A stretch of 64,000 nucleotides of DNA from an uncultured Solirubrobacterales bacterium (GCA_963826005.1 CAWGVJ010000002.1:267385-331384), one strand, 5' to 3'; shown: positions 30,581 to 48,751, counted from the first letter of the stretch. Made by a program: numbers and translations. Notes: a model not told the origin generated them from the sequence alone.

Positions 30581-31693
30581 GTGGGCATTCCCCTGTTCGA
30601 CACCGCCGAGCTGCTGCGCGAGGTGCGTCCCGAGGCCGAGGCCGCGATTGCGCCGCGTGGTCGAGTCCGGGCGCTTCATCTTCGGGCCGGAGGTGGAAGC
30701 CTTCGAGCGCGAGTTCGCCGAGTACCTCGGGGTGCAGCACGTGGTCGGCGTCGCGAACGGCACCGACGCGCTCACGATCGCGCTCAGCTGCCTGGGCGTC
30801 GGGCCCGGCGACGACGTGGTCGTGCCTTCGTTCACCTTCTACGCGAGCGCCGAGGCGATTCCCCACACCGGCGCGCGGCCCGTGTTCTGCGACATCGATC
30901 CGGAGACGTTCTGCGTCACCCCCGAGACGGTGGAGCGCGGCGCTCACGCCGCACACCCGCGCGGTGATCGCCGTCGACCTGTTCGGCCGCATGGCACCGG
31001 TCGACGCGCTGCGCGAGCGGCTTGCCGGCGCGCGGGATCGCGGTGCTCGAGGACGCGGCACAGGCCGCGGGCGCGCGCCTGCGCGGGAAGCGCGCGGGAT
31101 CGCTCGGCGAACGTCGCGCACCTTCAGCTTCTTCCCCTCCAAGAACCTGTTCTGCTTCGGCGACGGCGGCGCGATCGTGACCGACGACCCGGCGGTCGCG
31201 GAGCGCGCGCGGCTGCTGCGCTTCCACGGGTCGCGCGACAAGTCGAGCTTCGAGGCGGTCGGGTGGAACTCGCGCCTCGACGCGATCCAGGCCGCGGTGC
31301 TGCGCACGGTCCTGACGCGCCTCGACGGCTGGAACGAGCGCCGCCGCGAGCTGGCCGCCGCGTATGCCGACGCCGGGCCTCGGCGGACGTCGTGGCGCTG
31401 CCCGCGCCCCGCGGATGGCGAGGAGCCCGTCCATCACCTGTTCGTGACCGCGCGCGGCGCGAGCCCGACGCAGCTCGCGCGCGCGGCTCGCCGACGCCGG
31501 CATCGCAGTCGCGCTCCAATTACCGGGTGCCGGTCCACCGCCAGCCCGCGATGGCAGCCTGGGCCGCCGGCCTCCGACCTGCCCGGAACGGAGCAGGCGG
31601 CGCGTCACGAACCTCGCCCTGCCGATGGGCCCGACGCTCGGTCCGGGGACGGCCACGGCGGTCGCGGACGCCCTGGCGGCAGTCCGCCGTTAG
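30581..31693 (+). pseudogene. DegT/DnrJ/EryC1/StrS-family sugar aminotransferase (multiple frameshifts)
   Basis: GTG at 30581. Pieces are VESGRFIFGPEVEAFEREFAEYLG, GVANGTDALTIAL, VVVPSFTFYASAEA, SFFPSKNLFCFGDGGAIVTDD and LRFHGS. Confidence 0.8.
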
Positions 31694-31776
31694 CGCAAAC
31701 AGCGCTGCAAACAGGGCGGTCATGCGGGCTCGGCAGCGCGCACGGTACGCCGCTCTCAGCCCGTAAACTGCGGCAG

Positions 31777-33620
31777 ATGCGGAAGGCCGTGAACGACCCC
31801 GTCTACCGGCATCGCCTTTTCCAGCTGCTCGTCGACGCGGGCCTGGTCGCGCTCGCCTACTGGCTCGCGTACGCGCTGCGGTTCGACCACGGGATCCCGC
31901 GAGCGCTACAGCGACCTGCTGTGGAAGACGATCGCGTTCGTCGTCGATCGGCAAGGTGCTGATCTTCGCCGCCTTCGGCCTCTACGAGAAGTGGTGGCGC
32001 TACGTCGGGCCTGCGCGACTTCGAGTCGATCCTGCAAGGCCGTCGTCGTGGCGAGCCTCGTGATGGTCGGCGTGCTGTACGTGTGGTCGCCGACGGACAA
32101 CGACCTGCCGCGCTCGATCGCCGTGATGGACGTGCTGCTTGACGCTCGCCCTGATCGGCGGCGTGCGGCTCGTCGTCCGCAGCTCGTCGAGCGCCCGCCG
32201 CGCGGCGCGATGCTGCCCAAGGGCCAGGAGGTGCTGATCGTCGGCGCCGGCGAGGGCGGCCAGCTGGTCGCGCGCGAGATGCAGCGCACGCCAGTCGCTG
32301 CGCCAGACCCCGATCGGCTTCGTCGACGACGACCCGCGCAAGCGCGGCATGCGCATCCACGAGCTGAAGGTGCTGGGCACCACCACCGAGCTCGAGCGGC
32401 TGCTCGACGAGGTCGAGCCCGACGAGGTGATCATCGCGATCCCCTCGGCGCCCGGGGTCGCTGCGCGAGACGCGTGGTGCGCGCGTGCCGCGACCGCGAC
32501 ATCCCGGTGCGCACGCTGCCCGGCGTGTTCGAGCTGATCGCCGGCTCCGTCGACCTGATGCGCCAGGTGCGCGAGGTGCGGGTCGAGGACGTGCTCGGCC
32601 GCGAGCCGGTGAGCGTCGAGATCGAGGAGGCGGGCGCCTACCTGCGCGACCGCATCGTGCTCGTGACCGGCGCGGGCGGTTCGATCGGCTCGGAGCTGTG
32701 CCGCCAGATCGCGCGCGTGCGCCCGCGGCTGCTCGTGCTGCTCGACCACGCCGAGGACAACCTCTTCGAGATCGAGCGCGAGCTGATCCGGGACCGCCAC
32801 TTCACCGGCGTGCGAGTCGATCCTGGCGGACTGCAAGGAGCCGGACCGGATGCGAGTACGTGATGCAGCGCTTCCGGCCCGACGTCGTGTTCCACGCGGC
32901 CGCCTACAAGCACGTCTCGCTGATCGAGGAGAACCCGCTCGAGGCGGTGCGCAACAACGCGATCGGCACCCGCGTGTGCCGCGACCGCGGCGGCCGCGGT
33001 CGGGACGGCGCGTTCGTGCTGGTCTCGACCGACAAGGCGGTCAATCCCGCAGACCGCGCTCGGGGCCTCCAAGGCGATGGCGGAGTGGGTCATCGAGGCG
33101 CTGGGCCACCGGCATCCCGGCACGGTGTTCTGCTCGCGTGCGGTTCGGCAACGTGCTCGGCTCGAGCGGCAGCGTGGTGCCGCTCTTCCGCAGGCAGATC
33201 GCGCAGGGCGGCCCGGTGACCGTCACCCACCCCGAGATGGAGCGCTACTTCATGACGATCCCCGAGTCGGTGCAGCTCATCATCCGGGCCGGCGACCTCG
33301 CCAGCGGGGGCGAGACCTATCGTGCTCGAGATGGGCGAGCAGGTGAAGATCATCGACCTCGCGCGCAACATGATCAGGCTCTCCGGCCAGGACGCCGGAC
33401 GAGGTATCTCGATCGAGATCGTCGGCCCGCGGCCCGGCGAGAAGCTGCGCGAGGAGCTGTTCCACTCGACGACGAGCGGGCGGTCCCGACCGAGGCCGAC
33501 CGTATCCTGAGGGCCGAGCGCCCGCCGCTCGATCCCGAATGGGTCGAGTCGGTGTTCGAGCGAATCGAGCGGCTGGTGGAGCAGGGCGACGAGCCGTTCC
33601 TCGCCCAGCACGCTCGCTGA
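31777..33620 (+). pseudogene. CapD/PglF/WbpM-type membrane-anchored NDP-sugar 4,6-dehydratase/epimerase (many frameshifts; may extend to 33702)
   Basis: N-terminal TM helices, then [68 protein letters not shown] and [13 protein letters not shown], scattered over all three frames. Confidence 0.8.
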
Positions 33621-33720
33621 GCTCGTGCGCGAGGCGTACGGGAACTCCGGTCGCGAGACCGAGGAGGACGCCGGCACGGACGTGAAGGCACTGACTCCCT
33701 AGTGGTTCTTCGCTGACGCC

Positions 33721-34483
33721 GTGGATCTGCGTCGAGCGCGTAGGCTCGTACGTCGGGCTGGCAGCCTTCCTGGGCCTGGCGGTGCTCGCGCTGCTGTATT
33801 TCTCGCAGGCGCGCGACGTGCGGCGGCTGCGCGACTGGGCCGGCCGCGCGCCCGAGCGCGCCCTGGAGCAGCCGGTGACCGGCGACCGAGGTGGCTCCCG
33901 CGACACCCGCGGCGCAGCACTCGCTGCCCGCCACGCCGTTCGCGCAGGCGAGCCGCGCCCGCGCAAGCGAAAACCGCTGCGCGAGCGCATCCGCAACGTG
34001 CACATCCCGTATGCGCGCTACATCGCCATGCGGCGCGGCGGCGCTGCTCGTCGCCGGTGGAGCGGCCTTCGCCGTGGTCCAGCTGACCGGCGACGACGGC
34101 GGCACGACGGGGGCGAGCACCAGCTCCGACCAGGCGCAGAGCCGCACCGACAAGAAACGCGGGGACAACCAGCGCCGCGCCGATCAACGTCGACCCCTCC
34201 CAGGTGACCGTCGCCGTGCTGAACGGGACGACGGTGCAGGGCCTCGCGGCGCAGGTGGCCGACGAGGCGAACGCGGGCGGCTTCACGCCCGGAACGACCG
34301 GCAACGCGGCACGCGATCGACCAGACCGACTCGGAGGTGCTCTATCGGCCCGGCCAGGCCCGCGCGGCCAGGGCCGTCGCCAACCGGCTCGGCATCGACA
34401 AGACCGGCCCGGTCGATTCGGTCAACCAGGAGATCGCCGGCTCGTTCGACGTGGTCGTGCTTGTCGGCGCCGATCGGCAATAA
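33721..34483 (+). pseudogene. LytR_C-domain membrane protein (frameshifted; start uncertain)
   Basis: TM segment VGLAAFLGLAVLALLYF, then the C-terminal VTVAVLNGTTVQGLAAQVADEANAGGF...VLYRPGQARAARAVANRLGI...FDVVVLVGADRQ (my own translation). It ends at TAA 34481-34483. Confidence 0.5.
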
Positions 34484-34485
34484 AG

Positions 34486-34531
34486 GACGGTCGATCTGCA
34501 GCAGATCGACCGGTTCGTGGCGGGACGGTCG
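34486..34531 (+). repeat. Hairpin repeat copy D (intergenic, between a stop codon and the next GTG)
   Basis: GGTCGATCTG-cag-CAGATCGACC followed by GGTTCGTGGCGGGACGGTCG. The 9-mer GGACGGTCG occurs on both sides (34484-34492 and 34523-34531). Confidence 0.7.
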
Positions 34532-34535
34532 TAGC

Positions 34536-36300
34536 GTGAGCCGGCTGGTGCGGCCGGCAGCGGTGCCGGTGCTCGTCTTCGCGGCGCTCGTGGTCGCGAC
34601 GTTCGCTGCGTTCTTCGTCACGACCCGGCTGAAGCGCGCGGCGCCGGTGGTCGAGCAGGTCACCTTCCGGCGCAGCTTCTCGCCGAACGGCGACGGGCGC
34701 TTCGACGTCGCGCTGTTCTCGTTCCGCCTGCGCCGCTCCGACGACGTGACGGTGTCGGTGGTCACGCGCGACGGCGACGAGGTGCTGACGCTCGCCGAGG
34801 ACGTCCCGCTCGTCCGCGGGCGGCGCCACCGGTTTCGCTGGGACGGGCACAACGCCGCGGGCCGGGTCGCGCCCGACGGCGAGTACTCACCTGCGGGTCG
34901 GGCTGCGCCACCAGGGCCGCACCGTCACCTCGTCGCGCAAGCTCTTCCTCGACACGGTGCCGCCCAAGCCCGTCGTCAAGTCCGTGTCGCCGGACTCGAT
35001 CTCGCCCGACGGCGTCGGCGGGGCAACTCGGCGACGGCGCGGTTCGCGGGCCCGACCCGGCGCGCGCGGCTGCTCGTCTTCCGCACCGATCTCCCGCGCC
35101 CGCGGATCGTGGCCAGGCGCGACATCCCGCGCGGCGAGTCGACCGCTCGCTGGGACGGCCGCGTGACCGGCGGCGGCCCGGCGCCCACCGGCGCGTACCT
35201 GCTCGTCGTGCGCGCCCAGGACGCGGCCGGCAACGTCGGCCCGCGGCGCGTGCCGCCCGCGCCGCGGCGCAGTGCGCGGTCACCCGGGCCTGGCCGTCAG
35301 CTACGTGTCCGCGCGCGGCCCGGCCATCGTGGCCGCCGGCGGCGTCGCGCGGTTCACGGTGTCGGCGGACGGCCGGCGGTATCGCTGGAGCGTGCGCCGG
35401 CTGGGCGTCGGCCGGCCTCTCGCCCGCGGCACCGATCGATGCCGGGACGCTGACGCGTGCGCGCTCCCGCGGGCGCTCCGGCGTCGCGATGCTGACCGTG
35501 CGGGTCGGCACGCATCGCTACGCGACGCCGTTCGCGGTGCGAGAGCCGCCGCCGCGAGCGCGTGCTCGTGCTGCTCCCGCAGACCACCTGGCAGGCGCGC
35601 AACCAGGTCGAGGCCAACGGGGACGGCTATCCCGACGTGCTGCCCGAGGACGCGCGCGTGAGCGTGCGCCGCCCGTATGCGCGCACGGGCCTGCCGTCCG
35701 GGTTCGCCGGGGACGAGTCGGCGTTGCTCGCTTTCTCGACCGCGAGCACCTGCGCTACGACATCACCACGGACCTGGCGCCCGCAGGCGCCGCTCGACCG
35801 CTACACGGGCGTGCTGTTCGCGGGCCCGCCGCGCTTCGTCCCGGCCGGCACCGAGGGCGCTGTTGCGCTCCTACGTGCGAGGCGGCGGCCGGATCGCCTG
35901 GCTCGGCACCGGCGGCTTCGAGGGAGCGTGCGGACGGCCGGCGACGAACTCGTACGGCCGCGCGACAACGCCCGGGCGGCGCTGTTCGGCGAGCGCCTGC
36001 GGCCGGAGCCGGAGGCGGTGCCGGTCGCGGTCCTGAGCGACCACGTCGGGCTTCTTCGCGCGGTGTTCCCGCGCTCGTTCGGCCCGTTCGGCCCGCTCGA
36101 GGAATCGCTGCGCCTGCCGCTGCGGGCGCGCCTGCTGGCGTCGGCCGGCACGGGCGCGGATCGCCAGGCCGTGGTCGTCTATCGGCAAGGACGGCGGAAT
36201 CGTGGCGCGGGTCGGCATCGACGGGTTCGGCCGCGCGCTGCGCACCTCGCCCGCCGCCGAACGGATAATGCGCAGGCTATGGGTCCTGCTCTCGCGGTAG
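34536..36300 (+). pseudogene. Large exported/anchored hypothetical protein with FlgD-Ig-like repeats (many frameshifts)
   Basis: GVG at 34536 is a GTG start. It has an N-terminal TM helix and FSPNGDGRFDV...WDG...APDGEY and ARWDGR...APTGAYLLVVRAQDAAGN repeats. The C-terminal part is LLPQTTWQARNQVEANGDGYPDVLP...YTGVLFAGPPRF...GIDGFGRAL. Confidence 0.45.
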
Positions 36301-37844
36301 GCACCGCCGCGCCCAAGGCCGGAGTCGTGCTCGCGGCGCTTGCGGCGGCGGGCGTCCTGCTCGACCGCGACCCCCGGCGCCGCTCCTGGATGCTGCTGGC
36401 GCTCGTGCTCGCCGCCGTGATCCTGGTCAGCCACATCGCGGACACGGATCAGTTCCGCTCGATCAGCGACAACCGTGCCCGAGTTCGCCGGCCTGATCGC
36501 GGTCGCCGTGCTGACCGTCGGCCTGCTGCGGCGTCTGTCTCGTGCGCCGCCCGGACGCGCTGCCGCTGGTCGTGGTCGCGGTGCTCCCGTTCCGCGTGCC
36601 GATCGAGGCGGCCGGCACGCACCACCAACCTGCTCGTGCCGCTGTACGCTGGTCATCGCCGGGGCTGCGTCGCCTTCGCATGGCGCGGCTGCGCGACCGC
36701 GCCGCGCCCGACGGGGACGGACCCGCGCCAGGGCGCTGTCGCTGCGCGCTCGCCGCGTTGTGGTGCTGTACGCGCTCCAGGCGCTGTACTCGAAGGACTT
36801 CGACACGGCGCTCGAGCAGGTCGTCTTCTTCTTCGTGCCGTTCGCGCTCCTGTTCGCGCTGCTGACGCGAGGTGCGCTGGACCCGCGAGATCGTGCTCGT
36901 CCCTGCCTCGGCGTGGCGGTCGCGCTGTCGCTCGTCTTCGTGCGCGATCGGCTTCTGGGAGTACGGCCGGCGCGAGCTGCTCTGGAATCCGAAGGTGATC
37001 GCCGCGAACCAGTTCGAGTCGTACTTCCGCGTCAACTCGGTCTTCTGGGACCCGAACATCTACGGGCGCTTCCTGGTGCTGGTGATGCTTGGCACCACGG
37101 CGGTTCATGCTCTGGAGCCGCCGCCCCGGCGTCGCGATTCGCGCTCGGCGTCGTGCTGGCCGTGCTGTGGGGCGGGCTCGTGCTGACGTTCTCGCAGTCC
37201 AGCTTCGCGGCCCTCCTGCCGGGCCTGATCGTGCTTGCCGCACTGCGGTGGGACGTGCGCCGCACCGCCGCGGCGGCCGCGATCGGGCTCGCGTCGCGGC
37301 GGTGATCTTCGCGCTCGCATTCCAGAGCACGCTGAAGATCGACCTGGGCAACTCCGCGGGCCTGAACAAGGTCACGAGCGGCCGCTCGGACCTGATCCAG
37401 GGCGGCATCGACCTGTTCGCCAACCGGCCGGTGCAGGGTTACGGCTCGGGCGCGTTCGGGCGGGCCTTCCGGCGCGAGCGGAAGGGCAACCAGCAGCAGG
37501 CCGTATCGGCATCGCACACGATGCCGGTGACGGTGGCAGCGGAGCAGGGGCTGATCGGCCTGGTCGCCTACACGGCGGTCTGGTGGCGCGCGCTTTCACG
37601 CTGTTCGGGAACCGGATGGCAGCGCGGCCGCGCGGCCGGCGCCGGCGGCGTGGTCGCCCGCGCGGCGCTGGCCGCGATGTTCTGTCGCGCTGCGTGCTGC
37701 ACACGATGGTCTACGCGGCGTTCCTCGAGGACCCGTTCACCTGGGTGATACTGGCGGTCGGGCTGGCGCGTTGCCCGCAGCGCCCGGCTGGTCGTCGTGC
37801 GCGCGGCTCGGAGCCCCAGCACCGCGGAGCCGGCTCCAGTCTGA
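36279..37844 (+). pseudogene. O-antigen ligase (Wzy_C/WaaL-like) family membrane protein (many frameshifts)
   Basis: Pieces are YSKDFDTALEQVVFFFVPFALLFALL, RVNSVFWDPNIYGRFLVLVML, LTFSQSSFAALLPG, SGRSDLIQGGIDLFANRPVQGYGSGAF and SHTMPVTVAAEQGLIGL. Confidence 0.7.
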
Positions 37845-39323
37845 GCCACTGGGCGCGTACCTCGAGCGGCTGGTCCGGACCGGCGCGTGCCTACACCGCC
37901 TCGAGCGTCATCTCGAAGCTGTTCGCGGTCGCGCTGCTGCCGATCTACACGCGCCACCTGACCGCGCGGACTACGGCGCCGCAGAGGTGCTGCTGGCATT
38001 CGTGGTCGCTGCCAGCATCGTGCTGCGCCTGGGGATCATCGAGGCGCTGCTGCGCTTCTACTACAGCGGGAGGGAGGAGCGCCGCCGCGACGAGTGGTCG
38101 CTGCACCGCGGCGGCCTTCCTGCTCGTCGACGACCACCGTCGGCGCGCTGGTCGCGCTGCCGTTCGCCGGGCCGCTGTCGGAGCTGCTGCTCGGCCACCG
38201 CGACACGCGAGCTGATGCGGATCGCGATCGGCGGTCTGTGGGTGTTCAGCAACTACGAGCTGCTGATGGCGCTGTTCCGGCTGGACGAGCGCGCGGCGGC
38301 GCTTCTTCACCGCCAGCATCTGCGAACGTCGCTGCTGACGATCGGCCTGACCGTCTGGCTCGTGGTCGGCGCGACGAGGGCGCGCGCGGCCTGCTGCTCG
38401 GCAACTTCGGCGCCTCGCTCGCGGTGATCCTGCCGGTCCTGTTCTACGTGCAGCGCGCGCGCCTGCGCGCCGGTCCCGCTCCGCGACGCCGTGCTGCGGC
38501 CGATGCTGCGCTTCGGGCTGCCGACGATGCCCGCCGAGCTGTCGCTGTACGCGCTCGAACTTCATGGACCGCGTCGTGCTGGCGCGGGTGGCCGGACTGG
38601 CGGCGGCCGGCCTCTACTCGCTCGCGGTCAAGTTCAGCCAGGTGGTGACGGTGCTGGTCCGCGGCTTCAACCTCGCGTGGCCGCCGCTCGCCTACTCGAT
38701 CCGCGACGACGACGACGCGCGCCGCACCTACGTCGCTGATCGTCACCTACTACGTGCTGGTGTCGTTCACGGTCGTGCTGGCGCTGTCGCTGGAGGCGCG
38801 CTGGGTCGTGCGCGCGCTGGCGGCGCCGGAGTTCTTCGATTCCTACCAGGCCATCCCGCTGGTCGCCACCGGCGTCACGCTCTACGCGCTCTACCTCGTG
38901 CTCGTCCGTGGCGGTCGGGCGCATCGGCCGCACGGAATACAACTTCCCGGTCACGGGCGCGGCGCTCGCGGCCAACCTCGGCCTGAACCTGCTGCTGATC
39001 CCGCCGTACGGCATCGTGGGAGCCGGAATCGCGCTGGTCGCCTCGTACGTCGTGATGGTCGGCCTCATGTAGCTCGTCACGCGCCGGGTGTTCCCGCTCG
39101 GCCGTTCGAGTGGGCGCGGATTGCGCGCATCGTCGGGCTGGCCGCCGCGCTGTTCGCCGCGCGGGGAGCTGCTGCTGCCCGACTCGGGCGCGGTCGGGTT
39201 CGTGTCGCGGGCGGCGCTGGTGCCGGTCTTCTGGGCGCTGCTGTACGTGACCGGCTTCTTCCACCCGGCCGAGCTGCGAGCAGCTGCGTGTGATGCCGCG
39301 CCCGCGTGCGCCGACTGCGCTGA
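37771..39323 (+). pseudogene. Polysaccharide flippase (MOP/Wzx family) (many frameshifts plus an in-frame TAG at 39070-39072)
   Basis: Pieces are SSVISKLFAVALLPIYTRHLT, DYGAAEVLLAFVVAASIVLRLGIIEALLRFYY, LRPMLRFGLPTMPAELS, GLYSLAVKFSQVV and LIPPYGIVGAGIALVASYVVMVGLM*LVTRRVFP. Confidence 0.7.
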
Positions 39324-39328
39324 GTCGC

Positions 39329-40226
39329 TCAGCGCAGGCGCCGCAGGACCTCGAAGCCCTGCGCAGCCGCACGGAGCTGATGGACGAGGTGCACGACGCC
39401 GAGTAGGGCGACGAGCACGCTCGCGGCCGGTCACGTGCTGGATCACCGGGTACTCGCCGTCGAGCCCGCCGAGGAGGAGGTCGAGCGCCACGAAGCAGGT
39501 CGAGCAGGTTGACGAAGCCGGGGAACACGAGCACCTGCCCGAGGTTGGTCCAGCGTCGCCACAGGAAGCCGCGTTCCGCCGGCGCCCGGCGCGCCGCTGC
39601 TCGTAGGCGCGCCTCGAGGTCGAGCAGCTCCGGGTCGCCGCCCTGGCGCGCGAGCACGGCGCGCAGGAACTCGGGCGATCCGCGCAGCTCGGGGCGGTCC
39701 CGGTACAGGCCCAGCAGCACGTGGTCGCGCGCCGAGTAGGGCACGCGCACGACGCTCAGGATCGCCATCAGCGCGGCCAGCAGCAGCCAGGCGTCGTGAC
39801 CGCTCTGGGTGTACGCGCCCCACGCGACGCGCCGATCGCGATCGCGGGCACGTAGTAGTGGCCGAGCCAGTCGAGGTAGGCGCCGCCGGCGTTGGTGGGC
39901 GTGCCCTGCACCTGCGCGCGGTAGCGCGCGATCTCGCCGTCGGAGAAGTCGACCACGAACGACAGCTGCAGCAGCACGAGGCCCCCGACACAGCACCCAG
40001 AACTCGGTTCGAGGCGAGCATCAGGGCGCCCGCGACGCCGATCAGGATTCCGATGATCGGTGACCGTGTTGGCGCTCATGCGCGTGTGCAGGAGCAGCCA
40101 GGTGATCCGGATCGACAGCTTGCGGATCACCGCGGCGTAGGCGTTGCGGAAGTCGCGCGCCGCGCCGGGATCCCGCCCCTCGCCGCCGCAGATCGCCTCC
40201 AGCTCTCGAATGGGCGGGACGGGCAT
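39329..40226 (-). pseudogene. CDP-alcohol phosphatidyltransferase family protein (frameshifted)
   Basis: Signature DFSDGEIARYR...GAYLDWLGHY (DGxxAR...G...D type) and TM segments. The C-terminal end, SVLVALLGVVHLVHQLRAAAQGFEVLRRLR with stop at 39329-39331, comes from my own translation. Confidence 0.62.
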
Positions 40227-40247
40227 GCCCGATACTTTGCGCCAGCC

Positions 40248-40963
40248 ATGACGGCTGGTCATTCCCGTTGTCTACCTCGCGGCCGGCGAGGGCCGGCGCC
40301 TGCGCCCGCTCACCGACGCGGCGCCGAAGGCGATGCTCGACGTCGGCGGCGTCTCGCTCGCGGAGCGCGCGCTGTCGAGCCTGCGCGGCGCGGGGGTCGA
40401 GGAGGTGGTGGCCGTCACCGGTCACGCGCGTGAAGCGCTCGACGCCCTCGGCGACCTGATCTCCTCCGAGCGGGTCAACCCGCTGTACGTGGAGCACGGC
40501 AACATCTATTCGCTGTGGTGCGCGCGCGACGTCGTGAGCCGCGGGTGCTACATCGTCAACTGCGACGTGCTGTTCGGCGACGCGATCGCGCGGGCGCTGG
40601 TGAGTGCCACCGGATCATGTGTGCTGTGTGCGGCCGACCACGGCGTCGACGCCGAGTCGATGAAGGCGGTGGCCGGCGACGGCCGGCTCGAGGCGTCTCA
40701 GCAAGGACGCGCCGGTGGGCCCGCATCCCGAGTACATCGGCCTCGCCCGGATCGACCCCGCGCACGGCCCGGCTCTGGCCGACGCGCTCGAGCGCTTCGT
40801 GCGCGAGGGCCCGCTCGACGTGTACTACGAGGACGCGATCCAGGAGCTCGCGCGCAGCGTGCCGGTGGGGCTCGTCCCCGTCGACGGGCTCGCCTGGATC
40901 GAGATCGACGACCACGAGGACCTCGCGCAGGCGCGCGACGAGGTGCTCGCTCGCGTCGCGTGA
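40248..40963 (+). pseudogene. Nucleotidyltransferase (MobA/LicC-like, probable cytidylyltransferase) (frameshifted)
   Basis: VVYLAAGEGRRLRPLTDAAPKAML (GxGxRL NTP-transferase loop). The C-terminal part, EYIGLARIDP...WIEIDDHEDL, lies in ORF 40715..40963. Confidence 0.68.
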
Positions 40964-42081
40964 GGGCCGAGGGGCCGCCCGAGGCCGCGCCGCGCCGTCA
41001 CGGCCTCGCGGTGTGGCGGCGCTACATGGAGCTGCCGCGCTACCTGCGCGCCGTCAGTGGTCAGCAGGAGCTGGCCGCCGCGCTCGAGGAGCTCGCCGCC
41101 GGCCTCGACTTCGACCGGCTCGCGGTGGTCAGCGGGACGACCTTCACCGCCGGGGTCGCGCGCGAGCTGGCCGCCGCGCTGCCGCGGGCCGGCGACGCTC
41201 CCGTCGGCGTCGAGGCCAACACCGAGTCCGAGGTCGCACGGGTCGCCGCGGCGCCCGCGCTGCGCGAGGCCGATGCCGTCGTGGCGGTGGGAGGGGGCAA
41301 GACGATCGACGTCGCCAAGTCCGCGTGCGCGGTGGCCGAGCTGCCGCTGATCGTCGTGCCGACGCAGCTCACGGCGGACGGCATCGCTTCCCCGGTGAGC
41401 GTGATCCGCGACGCCGGCGGGCGCCTGCGCAGCGGGCCCGGGCGGTTGCCGATCGCGGTCGCCGTCGATCTGGCCGTGGTCGCCGCGGCGCCGGCGGCGC
41501 GCACGCGCGCGGGCCTCGGCGACCTGCTCGCCAACCCTGCGCGCTGCACGACTGGCACCTCGCGGCCGCGGCCGGCGGGGAGGAGGTGGACGACTTCGCC
41601 GCGCTGCTGCTCGCAGAGCGCCTTCGACCTGGTCTACGCGCCGGCGCCCGTGGCGCTGGACGACGGCCCGCCCCCGGCCGAGTTCCTGCACCGCCTGCTG
41701 CGCGGCCTCGTGCTGAGCGGCCTCGCGATGGAGATCGCGGGCTCGTCGCGCCCGTGCTCGGGGTCGGAGCACCTGATCAGCCATGCGCTCGACTCGCTGC
41801 ACCCCGGAACGGCGCAGCACGGGGAGCAGGTGGCCTTCGGGGCGCTGCTCGCGACGCGGCTGCAGGGCGGCGACTGGCGCGGCCTGCGCGACTTCATGCG
41901 CGCCGCCGGCCTGGGCGACGCGGCGGCCGGGTTCGGGCTGCCGGCCGAGGAGATCGCCGCCGTGGTGCGCGCCGCTCCCTCGATGCGACCCGAGCGGCAC
42001 ACGGTGCTGAGCGAGCCGGGCATCGCGGAGGTGGCCGTGGGCGAAGCGGTCGGCGACGTGCTTGGCGGACCCGGCGCGTGA
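40960..42081 (+). pseudogene. Fe-ADH/DHQS-superfamily enzyme, closest in motif pattern to sn-glycerol-1-phosphate dehydrogenase or glycerol dehydrogenase (two compensating frameshifts, about 41535-41600)
   Basis: Motifs are AVVAVGGGKTIDVAKS, LIVVPTQLTADGIASP, SGSEHLISHALD and HGEQVAFG. The start is either the GTG at 40960 (GTGA overlap) or the ATG at 41026. Confidence 0.65.
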
Positions 42082-42710
42082 ACATTCACGTGCGGCCCGC
42101 CCGCGCCGGCGAGGCGCCGGCGCTCGCGCCGCTCCTGTATGCGGTCAACCCGCAGCTGCACGACCGCTTCGCGGGCGGCCGCGAGCGCGCGCTGCAGCTG
42201 ATCGCCGAGGCGTTCGACAGCCCGGGCCACAGCGGCAGCGCGGAGGTCGTGCGCGTCGCCGAGGTGGATTCGACGCCCGCGGGAGTGATCGGCTGCTACC
42301 CCAATTGGGAGGGAGCCGCGCGCGGGCGCGCCGACGTGCGGCTGGGCCTGCGCCGGGCGTCGTTGCTGCGCCGCCCGCTGCTGCTCGCGTTCGTCTACCG
42401 CATGCAGCGCGCGATACCGGAGTCGGCGCACGAGGCGCTGTACGTCGACGCGCTCGCCACGGCCCCGGAGTTCAGGCGCCAGGGCGTCGCCCGTGCGCTG
42501 CTCGGCGCGGCCGCGGACGAGGCGCGGCGCCTCGGCCTGATCCGCGTCTGCCTCGAGACCGAGGTGGCGAACGCGCCGGCGCGGCGGCTGTACGAGAGCG
42601 CCGGTTTCCTGGTCGCGGCGCAGGGCCGGCGGGTGCGCGGCGTCCCGCGCTTCGTGAGCTATGTGCGCGAGCTCGGCGCCTTCACGGGCGCTATTCGCCC
42701 AGCACCTTGA
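42078..42710 (+). CDS. GNAT-family N-acetyltransferase
   Basis: GTG at 42078 overlaps the upstream stop (GTGA). The acetyl-CoA-binding segment is [22 protein letters not shown], followed by [13 protein letters not shown]. Confidence 0.75.
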
Positions 42711-43153
42711 TGATCAGGCGCTTGCGCCGGCGCGCCGTCGAACTCCGCGTAGAAGACCTGCTGCCACGGGCCCAGGTCGAGCCGGCCGTCGGTCACCGGC
42801 AGGACGACCTGGTGGTGGACCAGCAGGTTCTTCCAGTGCGCGTCGCCGTTGTCCTCGCCGCCGCGGTGATGGCGGAAGTCGCCGGGGTCCGGCGACAGCT
42901 CGCGCGCGACGTCGTTCGCGGGCGGCTTCCACGACGGGGGTGCGAGCTTGTCGAGCCATTCGAGCGTGTCCTCGAGGATTCCCGGCTCGTCGTCGTTGAC
43001 CCACACGCCCGCGGTGATGTGCATCGCCGACACGAGGGCCATGCCCTCCGCGATGCCGGCCTCGTCGACGGCCTCCTGCACGTCGTCGGTGATCCGCACC
43101 CACTCGCGCCGCTGGGAGGTCTGGAAGGTGCGGTAGACGGTATGAGTTTTCAC
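42691..43153 (-). pseudogene. YjbQ/UPF0047 family protein (secondary thiamine-phosphate synthase-like); one frameshift near 42730
   Basis: [12 protein letters not shown]...[20 protein letters not shown]...[17 protein letters not shown]...[13 protein letters not shown]. The true tail, [12 protein letters not shown], ends at 42691-42693 in the shifted frame. Confidence 0.8.
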
Positions 43154-44122
43154 GGTTCGCCTCCTCGGGCCGCCTTTGCTTGCTCTTCTTGGTTGTACGC
43201 GTCAGCGGCCTCCCTCAATCCCTTGCCACGGGCGGGGAGCAGGGAATGGTAGGCGTGCCACCAGTACCGGCGGGGGCTGTGGCCCGGCAGGATCACGGCG
43301 GCCAGCGCGCGCAGCAGATAGGTGAACGCGGTCAGCACGCGCACGATCGCCGCGGCCGCCGCCGCCGTGGTGCTTTCGCATGTAGCGGTCGCGGTTGCGC
43401 GAGAACTCGACGATCCGCCGGCGCGCGCCCGCGCCGTGCGAGAGCTGCTCGCCGTGGACGATCGTGGACTCGGGCACGTACAGCACGGACCACCCCGCCT
43501 CATGGGCGCGCTGCTGCCAGTCGACCTCGTCCGAGTACACGAAGAAATCGGGGTCCATCGCGCCGACCTGCTCGTACGCGTCGCGCCGGACCATCATGCC
43601 GGCCGACTGCACCCAGCCGACCTCCCGTACCTCATCGCCCGTGCTCTGCACGGTCACGCGGTTGTGCAGGAATAGCGCACCGGCCAGCGCACTGGCGACG
43701 CCCGGCAGGCGCCACGCCGACGGCTGCTGCTCCCCGGCGCGGTTGACGATGCGCGCGCCGGCCACGCCCGCCCGCGGCGCAGCCGAGAGCCTCGCCCGCA
43801 GCGTGTTGGCGGCGCCCGGGGTCAGCTCGGAGTCCTCGTTCAGGAGCAGCAGCCAGCGCCCGCGGCTGCGGGCCATCAGCTCCGAGTCGTTCTCGGCCTT
43901 CCCGCGGCGCCGGTCCAGCGGGATCAGCTCCACCGACTCCCCGAACCGCTCCCGCACGGCCGCGGCGGTGCCGTCGCGCGAGGCGTTGTCGAGCACCAGG
44001 ACCTCGAACGAAACGCCCGGTGGATGGGCGAAAACCGAGTCGAGGCACCGCAGCAGGTCCTCGCGGGCGTCGGTGCTGACGATGCAGATCGAGAGATCCT
44101 CGGGAGCTGCCCTGAAGGGCAT
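43150..44122 (-). pseudogene. Family 2 glycosyltransferase (one frameshift near 43365)
   Basis: The ATG at 44122 gives LSICIVSTDAREDLLRCLDSV...VLVLDNASRDGT...LLLNEDSEL...SAGMMVRRDAYEQVG (GT-A fold, DxD/ED motifs). The tail lies in ORF 43150..43503. Confidence 0.8.
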
Positions 44123-44155
44123 CGCGCCTCGGCGCCGCCAACATAATCCCCGCCG

Positions 44156-45275
44156 ATGCGCGTGACGGTCGCCGACCCGCCCGCCTACACGCCGCCCTAC
44201 GACCACGCGCTGTGCGAGGCGCTCGCGGACCGGGGGCTCGACGTGACCCTCGCCACCGCCCATTTCCGGTTCGGAGCGGTGCCCGCGCCGCGCGGCTACC
44301 GGCGGGCGGAGTGCTTCTACCGGGTCGCGCCGGGCAGCGCCGCGGCCAAGGCGCTGCAGCATCCGCTCGACATGGCGCGGCTCGCGCGCCGGGTGAGGGC
44401 GGAGCGCAGCGACGTCGTCCACTTCCAGTGGCTGCCGATACCGAACCTCGACCGGGTGCTGCTGCGGAGGTTCCCCCGGCCGGTCGTCCTCACCGCCCAC
44501 GACGTGACGCCGCGCGAGGTGCGAACGGGCGCGCGGGGCGGCATGCCGGCCGTGCTGCGTGCGGTCGACGCGGTGGTCGTGCACTCGCAGGCGGGGGCGC
44601 GGCGGGTCGTCGAGGAGGCGCAGGTGCCGGCCGCGCGCGTGCACGTGATCCCGCACGGCGCGTTCGCCCACCTCGCGCGCATGCCCGAGGGACCGCCACC
44701 GCCCGCGCTCGTCGGGCTGGAGGACCGGCGCGTCGTGCTCTTCTTCGGCCTGCGTGCGCCCGTACAAGGGAGTCGACCTGCTGGTGGAAGCGCTGGCCGG
44801 CACGCCCGACGACGTCGTGCTGCTGGTCGTCGGGATGCCGCGCATGTCACTCGCGCCGCTCGAGCGCCGCGCGCGCGAGCTGGGCATCGCCGAGCGCGTG
44901 CGGTTCGTGCCACGGTTCGTGCCCGACGCGGACGTGCCCGCGTACTTCCGGCGCGCGGACGTGGCCGTGCTGCCCTACCGCGAGATCGAGCAGTCGGGAG
45001 TGCTGTACACGGCACTCGCGTTCGGCACGCCGCTGCTGCTGAGCGCGGTCGGCGGCTTCCCCGAGATCGCGGAGCGCGGCGCCGCGCGGCTGGTCGAGCC
45101 CGGCAGCGTGGAGTCGCTGCGCTCTGGACTCACCGGCCTGCTCGACGACGCGCCGGCGCGGCGGGAGCTGTCGCAGGCGGCGCTCGCGCTCGCGGCCGGC
45201 GATCACTCCTGGGAGCGCGCGGCCGCGCTCACCGAGGAGCTGTACCGCAAGCTGCTGGAGGAGCGAGCGGCATGA
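44156..45275 (+). pseudogene. GT4/GT1-family glycosyltransferase (one frameshift near 44755)
   Basis: The N-terminal half is in ORF 44156.. . The C-terminal half, in ORF 44754..45275, has VVLLVVG...RVRFVPRFVPDADVPAYFRRADVAVLPYREIEQSGVLYTALAFGTP (the E-x7-E region). Confidence 0.85.
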
Positions 45276-46405
45276 CGATCACGGCGGTGATCTTCTGGGT
45301 GGCGATCGCGCTGATCGTGTACACGCACGTCGGCTACCCGCTGCTGCTGCGCGCGCTCGCGGCGCTGCGTTCGCGGCAGGCCGAAACCCGAACCGAGTCG
45401 CCGAACCCCGAGCGTCAGCCTGATCGTCGCGGCCCACGACGAGGGCGACGTGATCGAGGAGAAGGTGCGCAACATGCTCGCGCTCGAGTACCCGGGACAG
45501 TTGGAGCTGATCGTCGCGTCGGACGGGTCGACCGACGAAACGGTGGGATCGCAGCCGCGGACGTCGCGACGGTGCTGGACCTGCCGCGCCGGGGCAAGGT
45601 GCCGACCCAGGACGCCGCCGTCGATGAGGCGACCGGCGAGATCCTTGCGTTCTCCGACGCCAACACGTTCTGGGATCCCGATGCGCTGCGTGCGCTGGTG
45701 CGCCCGTTCGCGGACCCGCGCGGTGGGCTACGTGTGCGGCCAGCTTTCGCTATCTCTGCGCCGGACGGGGCGAACCAGGAGGGCGCGTACTGGCGCTACG
45801 AGAACTGGGTGCGCGGGCTCGAGAGCCGCCTCGGCTCGGTGACCGCCGGTAACGGCGCGATCTACGCGGTGCGGCGCGCTGCGTACATGCGGCTCGACCC
45901 GCGCACGAGCCACGACCTCTCGTTTCCCGTTCAACATGGTCAAGAAAGGGTGGAAGGCCGTGTACGAGCCCGCCGCGCGGGCGGTCGAGCGGCCGGTCGC
46001 CGTCGATCGAGGGTGAGTTCCGGCGCAAGCGGCGGATGATGAGCCACGCCTGGCCCACCGTCCTCTGGGGCGGCATGCTGAGCCCGCGCGGCTACGGGCT
46101 CACGTACGCGTTCGAGATCCTCTCGCACCGCGCCGCTGCGCTACGCGACCCCGTTCCTGCACGGGATCGCGCTGGTCGCGAACGTCCTACTGCTCGGCGA
46201 GGGCTGGATCTACACGGTCACGCTCGCGGTCCAGCTCGCGGTGATCGGGGCCGGGGGGCTGGCCCCGCTCAGGCCCCGCTCGCGCATCCTGGCGCTGTGC
46301 CGCTACTACGTGCTGATGACGATGTCGCTGGCGGCCGGCCTGTGGGACGCGCTGCTGCGCGGCACCCCGGCGACCTGGGAACGCGAGCGGGAGCGCCCGT
46401 CGTGA
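45272..46405 (+). pseudogene. Membrane-bound family 2 glycosyltransferase (many frameshifts)
   Basis: The ATG at 45272 overlaps the upstream stop (ATGA). Pieces are SLIVAAHDEGDVIEEKV, ELIVASDGSTDET, ILAFSDANTFWDPDAL, GAYWRYENWVR...GNGAIYAVRR and FRRKRRM, followed by C-terminal TM helices. Confidence 0.78.
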
Positions 46406-47013
46406 GCCGCGTGGTGAAGCGCGTGCTCGACGTGGCGATCGCCGGCCTGCTGCTGCTGCTCGCGGCGCCCTTCCTCGCTGCTCGCCGCCGCCGCGATCAA
46501 GCTCTCGAGCCGCGGGCCCGTGATCTACCGCCAGCGCCGCGTCGGGCAAGGGCGGCGCGGAGTTCGACCTCCTCAAGCTGCGCACGATGGTGACGGGCGC
46601 GGAGCAGATGGGCGCGGGCCTCGCGGTCGACGAGGGCGATCCGCGCATCACGCGCGCCGGCGCGCTGCTGCGGCGCTGGTCGCTGGACGAGCTGCCGAAC
46701 CTCGTGAACGTGCTGAACGGCGACATGAGCATCGTCGGCCCGCGCCCGACCGTGCAGTCGCAGGTGGCGCAGTACACGCCGCGCCAGCGCGGGCGGCTCG
46801 CGGTCGCGCCCGGCATCACCGGGTGGGCGCAGGTGCAGCGGCCGCGCGGCGCTCCCCTGGCACGAGCGCATCGAGCTCGACCTCTGGTACATCGAGCACT
46901 GGTCGCTGCGCCTCGACCTGCGCATCCTCGCGCGCACGGCGCGCATGCTGTTCACCGGGAAGGGCCTCTACCGCGGCGAGACGGGCGGCTGGCGCCCACC
47001 CCCGGACGAGTAG
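46402..47013 (+). pseudogene. Bacterial sugar transferase (polyprenyl-phosphate hexose-1-phosphate transferase, WbaP/EpsL-like) (several frameshifts)
   Basis: GTG at 46402 (GTGA overlap). Pieces are VKRVLDVAIAGLLLLLAAPF, SRGPVIYRQRRVG, KLRTMV, RSWSLDELPNLVNVLNGDMSIVGPRP, GITGWAQV and WYIEHWSLRLDLRIL. Confidence 0.85.
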
Positions 47014-48751
47014 CTACTGCACCCGGAACTCGACCACGTCCGAGCGCGCGGACAGGTTGCGCGCGTCGCTCAGGACCGAGAGCCGCAGGCGGTAGGCCGC
47101 GGGGCGCGTGAGGCGCAGGTTCGTGAGCAGATTGCCTCCATGCAGCTGCACGGTCCGGCGCGACACGCGCACCAGCCGCCCGCTCGACGTGCGCCGCTTC
47201 AGCGTCAGGATCGCGGCGGCCTTCTTCGGCCGCACCGTGCCGGTCACGCGCACGCGCTTGCCGGCGACGTCGGCCGCTGCCGTCACCACCGGCCGCACGC
47301 CGACCTGCAGGCTGGGCGAGCTCGAGGGCAGCAGTCCCGGCTCGCCCTCGAAGCGTGCGCGCACGCGGCGGTTGAGCGACAGCCGCATCCTCGTCTCCGC
47401 CTTGCCCAAGGCGTCGGTCTTCACCGAATGGTTGGTGCGCCAGCCGAGGCGCCCCAGCACCTGGATATCGATGCGCCGCCCGCCGAGCGGCGACACCGGT
47501 GTGCCGGCGGGTACTCCACCGGCGCCCACCGACATGCGCAGGACGGCCTTCGACCCGAAGGTGATGTTGCGGCGCTCGCGCGCGGCGGTCGTCTGCGTGG
47601 CGGCGCGCGGCGGCCCCGGGTCCACCATCGCGCGCAGATCCGGAAGCTGCGCATACAGGCCGTCCCCCGGGCAGGCGGTCGTGTTCCCGTCGCGATGGCC
47701 CGAGATCCGGTTGAAGACGTGCCGCGACCCGGCCGGGAACCGGTTCGTCGAGCCGCCCTGGGAGACGACCTCGACCGTGCCGGTGGGCGGCACGCCGTGC
47801 ACCGCGAGCTTCCAGCTCAGCAGGCGCGCGATCGCAGCCGAGGCCGGCGGGAGTCTGCCCGTCGTTGCTGAACGTGCCGAGGCTCGCGACGCCGGTCGAG
47901 GTGGAGTTGTAGCCCTGCGCCTGCGCGCCGACAACCGCCTCGGCGATGCCGCCCGCGCGTCCCTCGAAGATGGTGCCGTAGCGGTCGACGAGGAAGTTGT
48001 AGCCGATGTCGTTCCACCCGTTGCCGTTGCGGTGGTAGCGGCAGATCGCGAGCACCATCGCGGCGGAGTCCTCCGGGCCGTAGTCGTTGGCGCTGACCGT
48101 GTGATGGATGAACGCGAAGTTCACCTGGCCGTAGACGGGGTCGGCGCGCGGTGGGCACTTGTCGCTCGCCCATTGCTCCCGCGGCACGATCGCCGGTTGG
48201 GAGGTGTCGGCCTGCTTCCGGCTGTGCACGCGCGCCCGTCACGCGTGCGCAGCCGCGCGGCGGGCGTCGCGGTCCCGGTCGTGTTGACGAAATGCAGTCG
48301 CAGGTCACGCACGTGCCGTCCGCCGGTAAGAGCCGAGCTGCACCGCGTCGGCCTGTCCCGCCCACAGCGGGTCCGAGCTGAGCTGCCGCGTGGCGCGCCT
48401 CGGGCGATCCGGCGTCGGGCGCGTCGTCGGAGCCCGCGCTCACCGCGGTCCAGCGGCTCCAGTCCCCGCCGTTGCGGCGCACCCGTAAGCTGAGCGAGTC
48501 GATGCGGCCGCCGTCGCCAGCTCATGCCGACCAGGTTGAAGCGCTTGCCGGGACGCACGACATGCGACACCGACCGCCGCGCCGCGCGCACCGGCGGCGG
48601 ACCTCCCACGTCGACCGGTGCGGGCACGGTCCGCTCGAACTCGACCGGGTCGGGCACGAATCGCGCCGGCCGCGGGCGCGGCCGCGACGGACCACGCGGC
48701 CGCGAGGATCCCCGCGAGTACGGCCAGAGCTGTCGCCTTCTTGCGCCTCAT
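47014..48751 (-). pseudogene. Secreted N-acetylmuramoyl-L-alanine amidase (Amidase_2/PGRP domain) with a C-terminal beta-rich extension (many frameshifts)
   Basis: The signal peptide is MRRKKATALAVLAGILAAAWSVAAA. The amidase core is IVPREQWASD...FIHHTVSANDY...ICRYHRNGNGWNDIGYNFLVDRYGTIFEGR...ISGHRDGNTTACPG. Confidence 0.75.

Follow-up and report, generated by a model that had tools for sequence, protein, structure and literature searches.

A stretch of 64,000 nucleotides from an uncultured Solirubrobacterales bacterium (GCA_963826005.1 CAWGVJ010000002.1:267385-331384; the whole stretch is called the window here) carries three adjacent genes that we propose form a cassette for placing glycerophosphate on a wall polysaccharide. 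They encode a dehydrogenase of the glycerol-1-phosphate dehydrogenase (G1PDH) family, a nucleotidyltransferase (NT) resembling LicC and the cytidylyltransferase half of IPCT/DIPPS, and an integral membrane protein resembling CDP-alcohol phosphotransferases (CDP-AP). In the pathway that we favour, with a probability of roughly 0.6, dihydroxyacetone phosphate (DHAP) would be converted to sn-glycerol-1-phosphate (G1P) and then to CDP-glycerol, from which glycerophosphate would pass onto a lipid-linked repeat of a wall polysaccharide made by the Wzx/Wzy-dependent route. Observed family assignments, fold, motif, synteny, co-occurrence and phylogenetic distribution are the ground on which we infer all catalytic steps, the specificity for CTP, the sn-1 stereochemistry and the acceptor. 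The cassette itself is, on the genomes compared, real and conserved, and the evidence for its function comes from sequence and a structural model.

The G+C content of this region of the window is ~72-75%, so that mechanically made lists of open reading frames were full of spurious frames, and three-frame translation was used instead. This located the genes at the coordinates given by an earlier reading of the sequence alone (the sequence-only reading), which had described a module of four genes, the fourth being a GNAT acetyltransferase. The motifs that it had named (GEGRRLRPLT, GGGKTIDVAK, SGSEHLISHALD and HGEQVA) were all found in the window translations, as were both of its GTGA overlaps (GTG 40960-40962 with TGA 40961-40963; GTG 42078-42080 with TGA 42079-42081). 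The divergent gap that it had put at about 20 bp measures 21 bp between the start codons (CAT 40224-40226 and ATG 40248-40250). Its family assignments (an NTP-transferase, an Fe-ADH_2 enzyme nearest to G1PDH and a GNAT) were borne out by Pfam and NCBIfam. The three core genes are as follows.

39329-40226, minus strand: CDP-AP-like membrane protein with the motif DFSDGEIAR; about 295 residues when intact; tblastn with the orthologue from a related contig (L002) covers residues 1-294 in three frames

40248-40963, plus strand: LicC/IPCT-like NT with the motif AAGEGRRLRPLT; about 237 residues when intact; ATG at 40248, stop at 40963

40960-42081, plus strand: G1PDH-family dehydrogenase of the iron-containing alcohol dehydrogenase (Fe-ADH)/dehydroquinate synthase (DHQS) superfamily; intact orthologues of 351-373 residues; start at GTG 40960 or ATG 41026

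None of these is an uninterrupted reading frame in the window; each spreads over several frames. Searches were run with frame-corrected translations or, where needed, with intact orthologues.

The dehydrogenase is closest to G1PDH

The dehydrogenase scored 232.6 bits against the G1PDH model NF002022, 69.3 bits against GldA and 17.5 bits against aroB (dehydroquinate synthase). Among solved structures it was closest to 3ce9 and to the archaeal G1PDHs 5fb3 and 4rgq, with E values of 1e-38 to 1e-29; GldA entries matched at 1e-17 or worse. The sequence-only reading had likened the enzyme to either G1P or glycerol dehydrogenases; by these scores the first likeness stands and the second falls away, and by profile and PDB scores the enzyme does not belong with ordinary alcohol or glycerol dehydrogenases. 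Three motifs do not vary within the family (A3) and are shared with the crystallised archaeal G1PDHs: GDLL..DW.LA, GSSRP.SGSEHL.SHA and HGE.VA. D166, H249 and H265, which would be the Asp/His/His metal ligands of this family, are likewise invariant in A3 and align with 5fb3, as do G239-S-S-R-P243 and S245-G-x-E-H249. The A3 consensus also retains an N-terminal extension (..VWRR.MELPRYL). The activity predicted from these features is the reduction of DHAP to sn-glycerol-1-phosphate.

Among species-representative genomes, 570 relatives of the dehydrogenase were found, and 91 of them were placed in a tree. This tree has no GldA or DHQS outgroup, and the set is separated from those families by gaps in profile (HMM) and PDB scores. 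A split with 97% SH-aLRT support placed the dehydrogenases linked to an NT and a transferase on one side, including those of Solirubrobacterales, Acidimicrobiia, a Chloroflexia metagenome-assembled genome (MAG), Thermoactinomycetaceae, Fictibacillus and a Nitrosopumilales archaeon. The opposite side holds a large clade in which gut and rumen bacteria, chiefly Bacillota, predominate. In the sole annotated locus of that clade, from Ruminococcus flavefaciens Y1, the gene adjoins a HAD phosphatase in an AraM/AraL-like arrangement.

The nucleotidyltransferase resembles enzymes that activate phospho-alcohols

Pfam assigned the NT to NTP_transf_3 (PF12804, 49 bits) and NTP_transferase (PF00483, 34 bits), both over cut-off, and the N-terminal loop G-x-G-x-R-L-x-P-L-T is present as AAGEGRRLRPLT. 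The best NCBIfam match was the cytidylyltransferase (IPCT) half of IPCT/DIPPS, and the best PDB matches were LicC (1jyk, 9e-13), which acts on phosphocholine with CTP, and PntC (6pd1, 2e-11), which forms CMP-aminoethylphosphonate. These two enzymes and IPCT all activate small phospho-alcohols with CTP. We propose the NT as a candidate CTP:glycerol-phosphate cytidylyltransferase; its suggested preference for CTP and glycerol-phosphate follows only from its partner's need for a CDP-alcohol.

The membrane protein is a variant of the CDP-AP fold

Against Pfam CDP-OH_P_transf (PF01066), the intact orthologue on a second related contig (L001) scored 21.2 bits, under the gathering cut-off of 22, and the frame-corrected window protein gave no PF01066 match at E <= 0.01. 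A profile of 28 orthologues matched AF2299 (4o6m) at E = 3e-11 and IPCT-DIPPS (4mnd) too. AF2299 has been crystallised with CDP-glycerol (PMC8633023). An AlphaFold2 (AF2) model made from a 69-sequence alignment had a pLDDT of 90.8 and a pTM of 0.89, and the Foldseek matches ranked 1-19 were all CDP-APs (AF2299, PIPS, PgsA1 and DIPPS), with a probability of 1.0 and TM-scores of ~0.45-0.50. On the strength of this model, we are confident in assigning the six-helix transmembrane core fold of CDP-APs.

Members of the PF01066 family have eight residues that are fully conserved, D1xxD2G1xxAR...G2xxxD3xxxD4, and a nucleotide-binding motif, P(D/N)xx(T/S), at the start of the first transmembrane helix; D4 is regarded as the catalytic base, and a phosphatidylinositol-phosphate (PIP) synthase with Asn in its place loses nearly all activity (PMC4634129). 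We found the motif D-x2-D-G-x2-A-R-x13-G-x3-D-x3-H in the window protein after frame correction and in every intact orthologue. Seven of the eight signature residues are invariant (D92, D95, G96, A99, R100, G114 and D118), and the fourth signature Asp is replaced by an invariant His122, which alignment with AF2299 puts opposite D4. The loop from R to G2 is five residues longer than in the AF2299/DIPPS relatives. At the first transmembrane helix the motif reads S-A-N53-x-V-T56, with N53 and T56 invariant. The sequence-only reading had looked for the full D-x2-D-G-x2-A-R...D-x3-D motif in the corrected sequence, and finding His at D4 counts formally against it; the invariance of the substitution, together with the confidently modelled fold, argues for a variant enzyme and not a dead one. 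His122 could serve as the base.

Searched exhaustively, 1.84 billion cluster representatives yielded 2,295 relatives of the transferase at E <= 1e-3. Among the 111 best representatives that bear the motif, 101 have His at the D4 position. The notion that His is a universal substitute for the catalytic base is weakened by more distant relatives with G, R or D at this position (L100, L101, L031 and L025), and across the sequences of this glycan-associated branch of CDP-APs the catalytic-base position varies. Two of these relatives lie in low-GC capsule loci (L100 7850-8560 and L101 9488-10198) and have Gly at D4, in the motif DGVDGN.AR...G..[VI]DAM.G. We propose that the membrane protein transfers glycerophosphate to a lipid-linked glycan.

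The cassette is syntenic within a polysaccharide cluster

Intact homologues of the frame-corrected dehydrogenase share up to 90% identity with it and, where their source is named, come from Solirubrobacterales. Two long contigs (L001 and L002) show the same neighbourhood with intact genes, in the order DegT, PglF-like dehydratase, LytR_C, FlgD_ig protein, Wzy_C, Wzx flippase, 295-residue membrane protein (minus strand), NT, Fe-ADH, (GNAT), YjbQ, GT2, GT4, GT2 and Bac_transf. The corresponding neighbours of the core genes in the window are given below.

36279-37816, plus strand: Wzy_C (O-antigen-ligase/polymerase-like) membrane protein; PF04932 in the L001/L002 orthologues; glycan-pathway context

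37889-39403, plus strand: Wzx-type flippase (Polysacc_synt); PF01943 and PF13440 in the L001/L002 orthologue; six frame pieces in the window

42078-42710, plus strand: GNAT acetyltransferase; Pfam Acetyltransf_1, 61 bits; accessory neighbour outside the conserved core

43153-47007, mixed strands: GT2 (minus strand), GT4, GT2 and a small Bac_transf priming phosphoglycosyl transferase; from Pfam assignments of the syntenic L001/L002 genes, mapped to the window

Judged by these families, the genes at 43153-47007 are the remainder of the repeat-unit assembly line. The Wzx flippase gene and the CDP-AP-like gene are convergent, and their 3' ends overlap by ~70-78 bp (window 39335-39403; L001 8258-8335), an overlap that is kept in intact relatives.

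Of 41 genomes of the order, 22 have the G1PDH-like, NT and CDP-AP-like genes side by side, namely 17 of the 18 genomes of one family (f1) and all five of another (f5). Neither the NT gene nor the CDP-AP-like gene is found in any of the 41 unless the whole trio is there; the remaining genomes have none of the three, except for a lone G1PDH-like gene in G016, which is 57% complete, and a weaker-scoring one in G023. Because the same order recurs in 22 related genomes, the arrangement far exceeds chance, and the synteny on which the sequence-only reading had made its module depend proved strict for the core genes, both in these relatives and in distant lineages.

Canonical TagD (TIGR01518) was found above cut-off in none of the 41 Solirubrobacterales genomes. 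TagF-like genes (PF04464) occur only in G014, G016, G030 and G031, and none is in the window's genus. In one genus of the window's family (g4, comprising G009, G014 and G016) the His-type transferase is weak or absent and the G1PDH-like gene is retained. In G009 and G014 the CDP-AP-like gene that comes after the NT and G1PDH genes is far more divergent (58-63 bits); neither an NT nor a CDP-AP-like gene was found in G016, at its 57% completeness. On other contigs, TagF-like genes are present in G014 and G016 (two to three), without TagD. The same CDP-glycerol supply may feed another type of transferase in this genus, and the presence of TagF-like genes where the His-type transferase is weak or absent fits a role of the NT and G1PDH pair in supplying CDP-glycerol.

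The cassette and its transferase adjoin polymer-export genes in distant lineages

The trio recurs in Thermoactinomycetaceae, Fictibacillus, Acidimicrobiia and one Nitrosopumilales MAG, and all readable contexts tie the cassette or the transferase family to genes for polymer export (Wzx or ABC-2). One locus (L009) shows translational coupling between the transferase gene and that of a Wzx flippase. An orthologous metagenomic operon (L012) encodes, in order, NT, Fe-ADH, CDP-AP, CDP-AP, methyltransferase, Wzx and GT4, with identities of 37%, 42% and 29% to the window's family. The Nitrosopumilales MAG (G041) has Wzx, G1PDH, NT and CDP-AP genes, and two near-identical copies of this arrangement were seen in it (L031 and L096). 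No further G1PDH homologue was found in G041 at E <= 1e-15; the cassette gene may be the lipid G1PDH of this archaeon, or the MAG may mix strains.

In Marininema, Melghirimyces, Marinithermofilum and Fictibacillus the trio adjoins an ABC-2 transporter and a second transferase. The locus of Marininema halotolerans DSM 45789 (L025, 5245-11593) reads GT2, CDP-AP, NT, G1PDH, ABC-2 permease and ATPase, and second CDP-AP. Such loci, which occur in cultured strains, could be poly(glycerophosphate) pathways built on CDP-AP enzymes. The second CDP-AP-like gene of L025 has the canonical D4; the locus has no TagF-type enzyme, and its layout is teichoic-acid-like. When 401 genomes of the class Bacilli were scanned for the transferase and the dehydrogenase, transferase matches flanked the dehydrogenase in 17 of the 18 genomes with a module-type dehydrogenase, and the small low-GC genomes of this sample had no module-type dehydrogenase.

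The CDP-AP-like gene also occurs with other supply genes. It lies alongside TarI/TarJ-like CDP-ribitol genes in one capsule locus (L100), and in a streptococcal-type cps locus (L101) the order is cpsA-D, Bac_transf, GT8, CDP-AP-like, GT4, GT2, GT2, Wzy, acyltransferase and Wzx; neither locus has a module-type dehydrogenase. As far as gene content tells, the shared theme is a glycan-type CDP-AP together with whichever CDP-polyol supply genes adjoin it. In a further arrangement (L010/L011, 3877-7843), Wzx and Wzy_C flank an IspD-type cytidylyltransferase fused to a DHBP-synthase domain, followed by a short SDR-family gene and a pair of CDP-AP-like paralogues. The encoded set suggests a CDP-activated four-carbon polyol phosphate as the glycan substituent.

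A proposed pathway and its alternatives

We propose the following sequence of reactions. The G1PDH-family enzyme would reduce DHAP to sn-glycerol-1-phosphate, and the LicC/IPCT-like NT would join this to CTP to give CDP-glycerol. The His-variant CDP-AP membrane enzyme would then act at the cytoplasmic side of the membrane, moving glycerophosphate from CDP-glycerol, with release of CMP, to a hydroxyl group on the repeat unit carried by undecaprenyl pyrophosphate. Wzx would flip the unit, Wzy would polymerise it, and attachment to the wall would follow. The logic of the sequence-only reading, in which a polyol phosphate is converted to a CDP-alcohol and transferred, fits all of the evidence from families, fold and synteny. 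That reading had left a glycan, a phospholipid and a compatible solute as destinations; with Wzx/Wzy or ABC-2 and glycosyltransferase genes always adjacent, the glycan is clearly favoured, and the other two are disfavoured.

Several observations weigh against this pathway. The transferase is without the catalytic fourth Asp, and the residue at that position differs again in its distant relatives. The dehydrogenase, at 232.6 bits, falls under the curated G1PDH equivalog cut-off of 413, so that another substrate is possible; none of the 41 genomes of the order has a protein that passes this cut-off either. The acceptor is read from gene neighbourhood alone, the window's copy of the cassette is frameshifted, and literature searches gave nothing on this cassette or its enzymes.

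The cassette might have the same architecture and handle another small alcohol phosphate, with the Fe-ADH not making G1P and another glycerol-phosphate isomer or a short polyol phosphate being activated. The low equivalog score agrees with this, as does the Nitrosopumilales archaeon, which needs G1P anyway and has two copies of the cassette dehydrogenase. So does the Wzx/Wzy capsule locus of Streptococcus pneumoniae serogroups 15, 23 and 28, in which the order wzx-wchX-gtp1-gtp2-gtp3 resembles that of flippase, transferase and supply genes here (PMC5581491, PMC1391919). The likeness between the cassette and Gtp1/Gtp2/Gtp3 with WchX is one of gene order alone: a flippase, a glycerophosphotransferase and then a dedicated CDP-glycerol supply set. 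Wang et al. (2010) reportedly found the pneumococcal product to be glycerol-2-phosphate made from free glycerol, and Gtp1 of this CDP-2-glycerol pathway reportedly reduces dihydroxyacetone to glycerol. The conserved cassette, however, consists on its supply side of only a dehydrogenase and an NT; it lacks a third supply gene (Gtp3, a glycerol-2-phosphotransferase), and no other kinase or phosphotransferase accompanies it that could phosphorylate a free alcohol. Moreover, the motifs common to crystallised archaeal G1PDHs are invariant in the dehydrogenase, and the archaeal MAG has no other G1PDH homologue, so its cassette copy may be the lipid enzyme. We consider another alcohol unlikely.

Slightly less likely still, in our view, is a lipid acceptor, with glycerophosphate passing from CDP-glycerol to diacylglycerol or a glycolipid to give a Kennedy-type, phosphatidylglycerol-like head group or a lipoteichoic-acid-like anchor or chain. 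All characterised CDP-APs yield phospholipids or phosphodiester solutes, and the extra C-terminal helices in the AF2 model recall eukaryotic members that take a hydrophobic acceptor (PMC4634129). The Bacilli loci with two transferase paralogues and an ABC-2 exporter would also fit a primed poly(glycerophosphate) chain. In the window's lineage, however, the gene lies inside a cluster of Wzx, Wzy, glycosyltransferase and Bac_transf genes, with its 3' end overlapping that of the flippase gene, and relatives lie in the middle of capsule loci, between glycosyltransferases; both placements speak against a lipid acceptor.

We judge it improbable that the frameshifts are real and that the module is decaying and non-functional in this genome. 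When the window at 39.3-42.1 kb was aligned with three intact relatives, ~13 single-base insertions or deletions (indels), mostly insertions, were private to the window at 39.4-41.6 kb. They include two in the NT gene (40255 and 40696), a compensating pair in the Fe-ADH gene (41537 and 41610) and at least eight in the CDP-AP-like gene. Such a load in 2.8 kb, with every core gene interrupted, could indicate decay, as could the source genome, a 22-contig MAG scored as 67% complete. But tblastn with intact proteins of the syntenic locus found nearly all genes at 30.9-48.7 kb in two to six frame pieces, bearing the same indel load, and gap openings against the window number 10-15 per kb, two to three times the 4-6 per kb between intact relatives. 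Between the indels the protein shares 85-90% identity with intact orthologues and the shifts include compensating ones, and another assembly of the same genus (G002) is split in the same manner. Because the neighbouring genes carry the same load and the gap rate exceeds that of intact relatives, we regard assembly error as the most likely cause, and not decay of this module. Across window positions 30900-48700 the single-base indels are mostly insertions and occur beyond homopolymers too, affecting the PglF-like, FlgD_ig, Wzy, Wzx, glycosyltransferase and amidase genes. Genes split in this way fit an unpolished long-read assembly and probably account for the 67% completeness score.

A compatible solute such as diglycerol phosphate or glycerophosphoinositol, made by an IPCT/DIPPS-like pair, is very improbable, and we reject it: the NT and the membrane enzyme do find the two halves of IPCT/DIPPS as their best NCBIfam matches, and AF2299 and DIPPS are the nearest solved structures, but the scores of 58.9 and 38.5 bits are far under the IPCT/DIPPS (NF041135) cut-off of 580, the association with polymer-export and glycosyltransferase genes is constant, the carriers are mesophilic soil organisms, and no conserved phosphatase adjoins.

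Relation to known systems

Bacterial G1PDH orthologues form a deep clan, mainly of Firmicutes and Actinobacteria, whose roles are largely unknown (PMC6431249). They have been catalogued for 20 years, mostly with regard to the 'lipid divide', with almost no role assigned outside AraM/PcrB of Bacillus subtilis (PMC6431249, PMC5059525). The cassette dehydrogenase belongs to the same family as EgsA and B. subtilis AraM by profile and solved structures, with conserved metal and active-site motifs. It differs from them in scoring under the equivalog cut-off and in forming its own clade, defined by linkage to the cytidylyltransferase and the CDP-AP-like gene and set apart from the clade of mostly gut and rumen bacteria whose single annotated locus is AraM/AraL-like; in addition, no prenyl transferase of the GGGPS/PcrB type is linked to it in the loci examined. 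The cassette offers a concrete, testable role for bacterial G1PDH, the provision of opposite-handed CDP-glycerol for cell-wall polymers, which, if true, would give a physiological reason for the retention of G1PDH in many Bacteria.

In the wall-teichoic-acid and capsule pathways of TagD (Gct) or TarI/TarJ with TagF/TarL or LicD, as in the one proposed here, a cytoplasmic pair makes a CDP-polyol and a membrane-associated enzyme adds the polyol phosphate to a glycopolymer on its lipid carrier before export (by Wzx or ABC-2). The cassette differs in that its supply enzymes would be a G1PDH-family reductase and a LicC-type NT of Rossmann-like GT-A fold, not an HxGH-type TagD, and its transferase would be an integral membrane protein of CDP-AP fold, unlike TagF (PF04464) or LicD. 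The expected stereochemistry is sn-1, not the sn-3 of the TagD/TagF pathway. The cassette lineages examined in Solirubrobacterales are without TagD, and most are also without TagF. More tentatively than for the pathway itself, we suggest that the cassette represents a third, undescribed route to envelope polymers bearing glycerophosphate, independent of TagD/TagF and of LtaS, that would employ sn-glycerol-1-phosphate, the archaeal enantiomer, by way of cytoplasmic CDP-(sn-1)-glycerol.

AF2299 of Archaeoglobus fulgidus and IPCT/DIPPS (4o6m, 4q7c and 4mnd) are the nearest solved proteins to the membrane enzyme by profile and fold; they likewise use soluble CDP-alcohol donors and pair a nucleotidyltransferase with a CDP-AP membrane domain. 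Unlike in IPCT/DIPPS, the NT and the CDP-AP of the cassette are encoded by separate, unfused and divergently transcribed genes. The cassette enzyme also differs from these proteins in its His at D4, the five-residue insert in the R-G2 loop, a cytosolic insert and extra C-terminal helices, and its context is glycan assembly, not the synthesis of solutes or phosphoinositides. If our proposal is correct, the reach of the CDP-AP superfamily would go beyond the making of lipids and solutes to take in the modification of glycans, where the catalytic residue would be one other than Asp. The branch concerned is large and unannotated: the closest of the 2,295 representatives mostly have His at D4, and those examined lie in polysaccharide loci with varied CDP-polyol supply. 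These findings bear on the annotation of capsule, O-antigen and teichoic-acid loci and on the enzymology of the family. The window's copy is a poor-quality, error-ridden example of the cassette and adds little in itself; cultured carriers include Marininema halotolerans DSM 45789, Melghirimyces thermohalophilus DSM 45514, Marinithermofilum abyssi and Fictibacillus terranigra.

The GNAT gene is a lineage-restricted neighbour

The sequence-only reading had counted the GNAT gene as a member of the module, and this did not hold: of the 22 cassette genomes, only 10 have this gene 3' of the dehydrogenase gene. It is missing from L002, from seven of the 17 cassette genomes of the window's family and from all those of f5, as well as from G016, which has the G1PDH-like gene only, and it occurs without the module in two genomes of a third family (f3). 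Given this patchy presence, we rejected it as part of the conserved core. The GNAT weakly matches a WecD-type dTDP-4-amino-4,6-dideoxyhexose acyltransferase (E = 3e-5), and the cluster, which takes in window 30943-33699, also encodes a small PglC-like Bac_transf, a DegT aminotransferase and a PglF-like dehydratase. Rather than serving the glycerophosphate module, the GNAT may N-acetylate the 4-amino sugar of the PglF/PglE-like genes, for example a bacillosamine-like first sugar.

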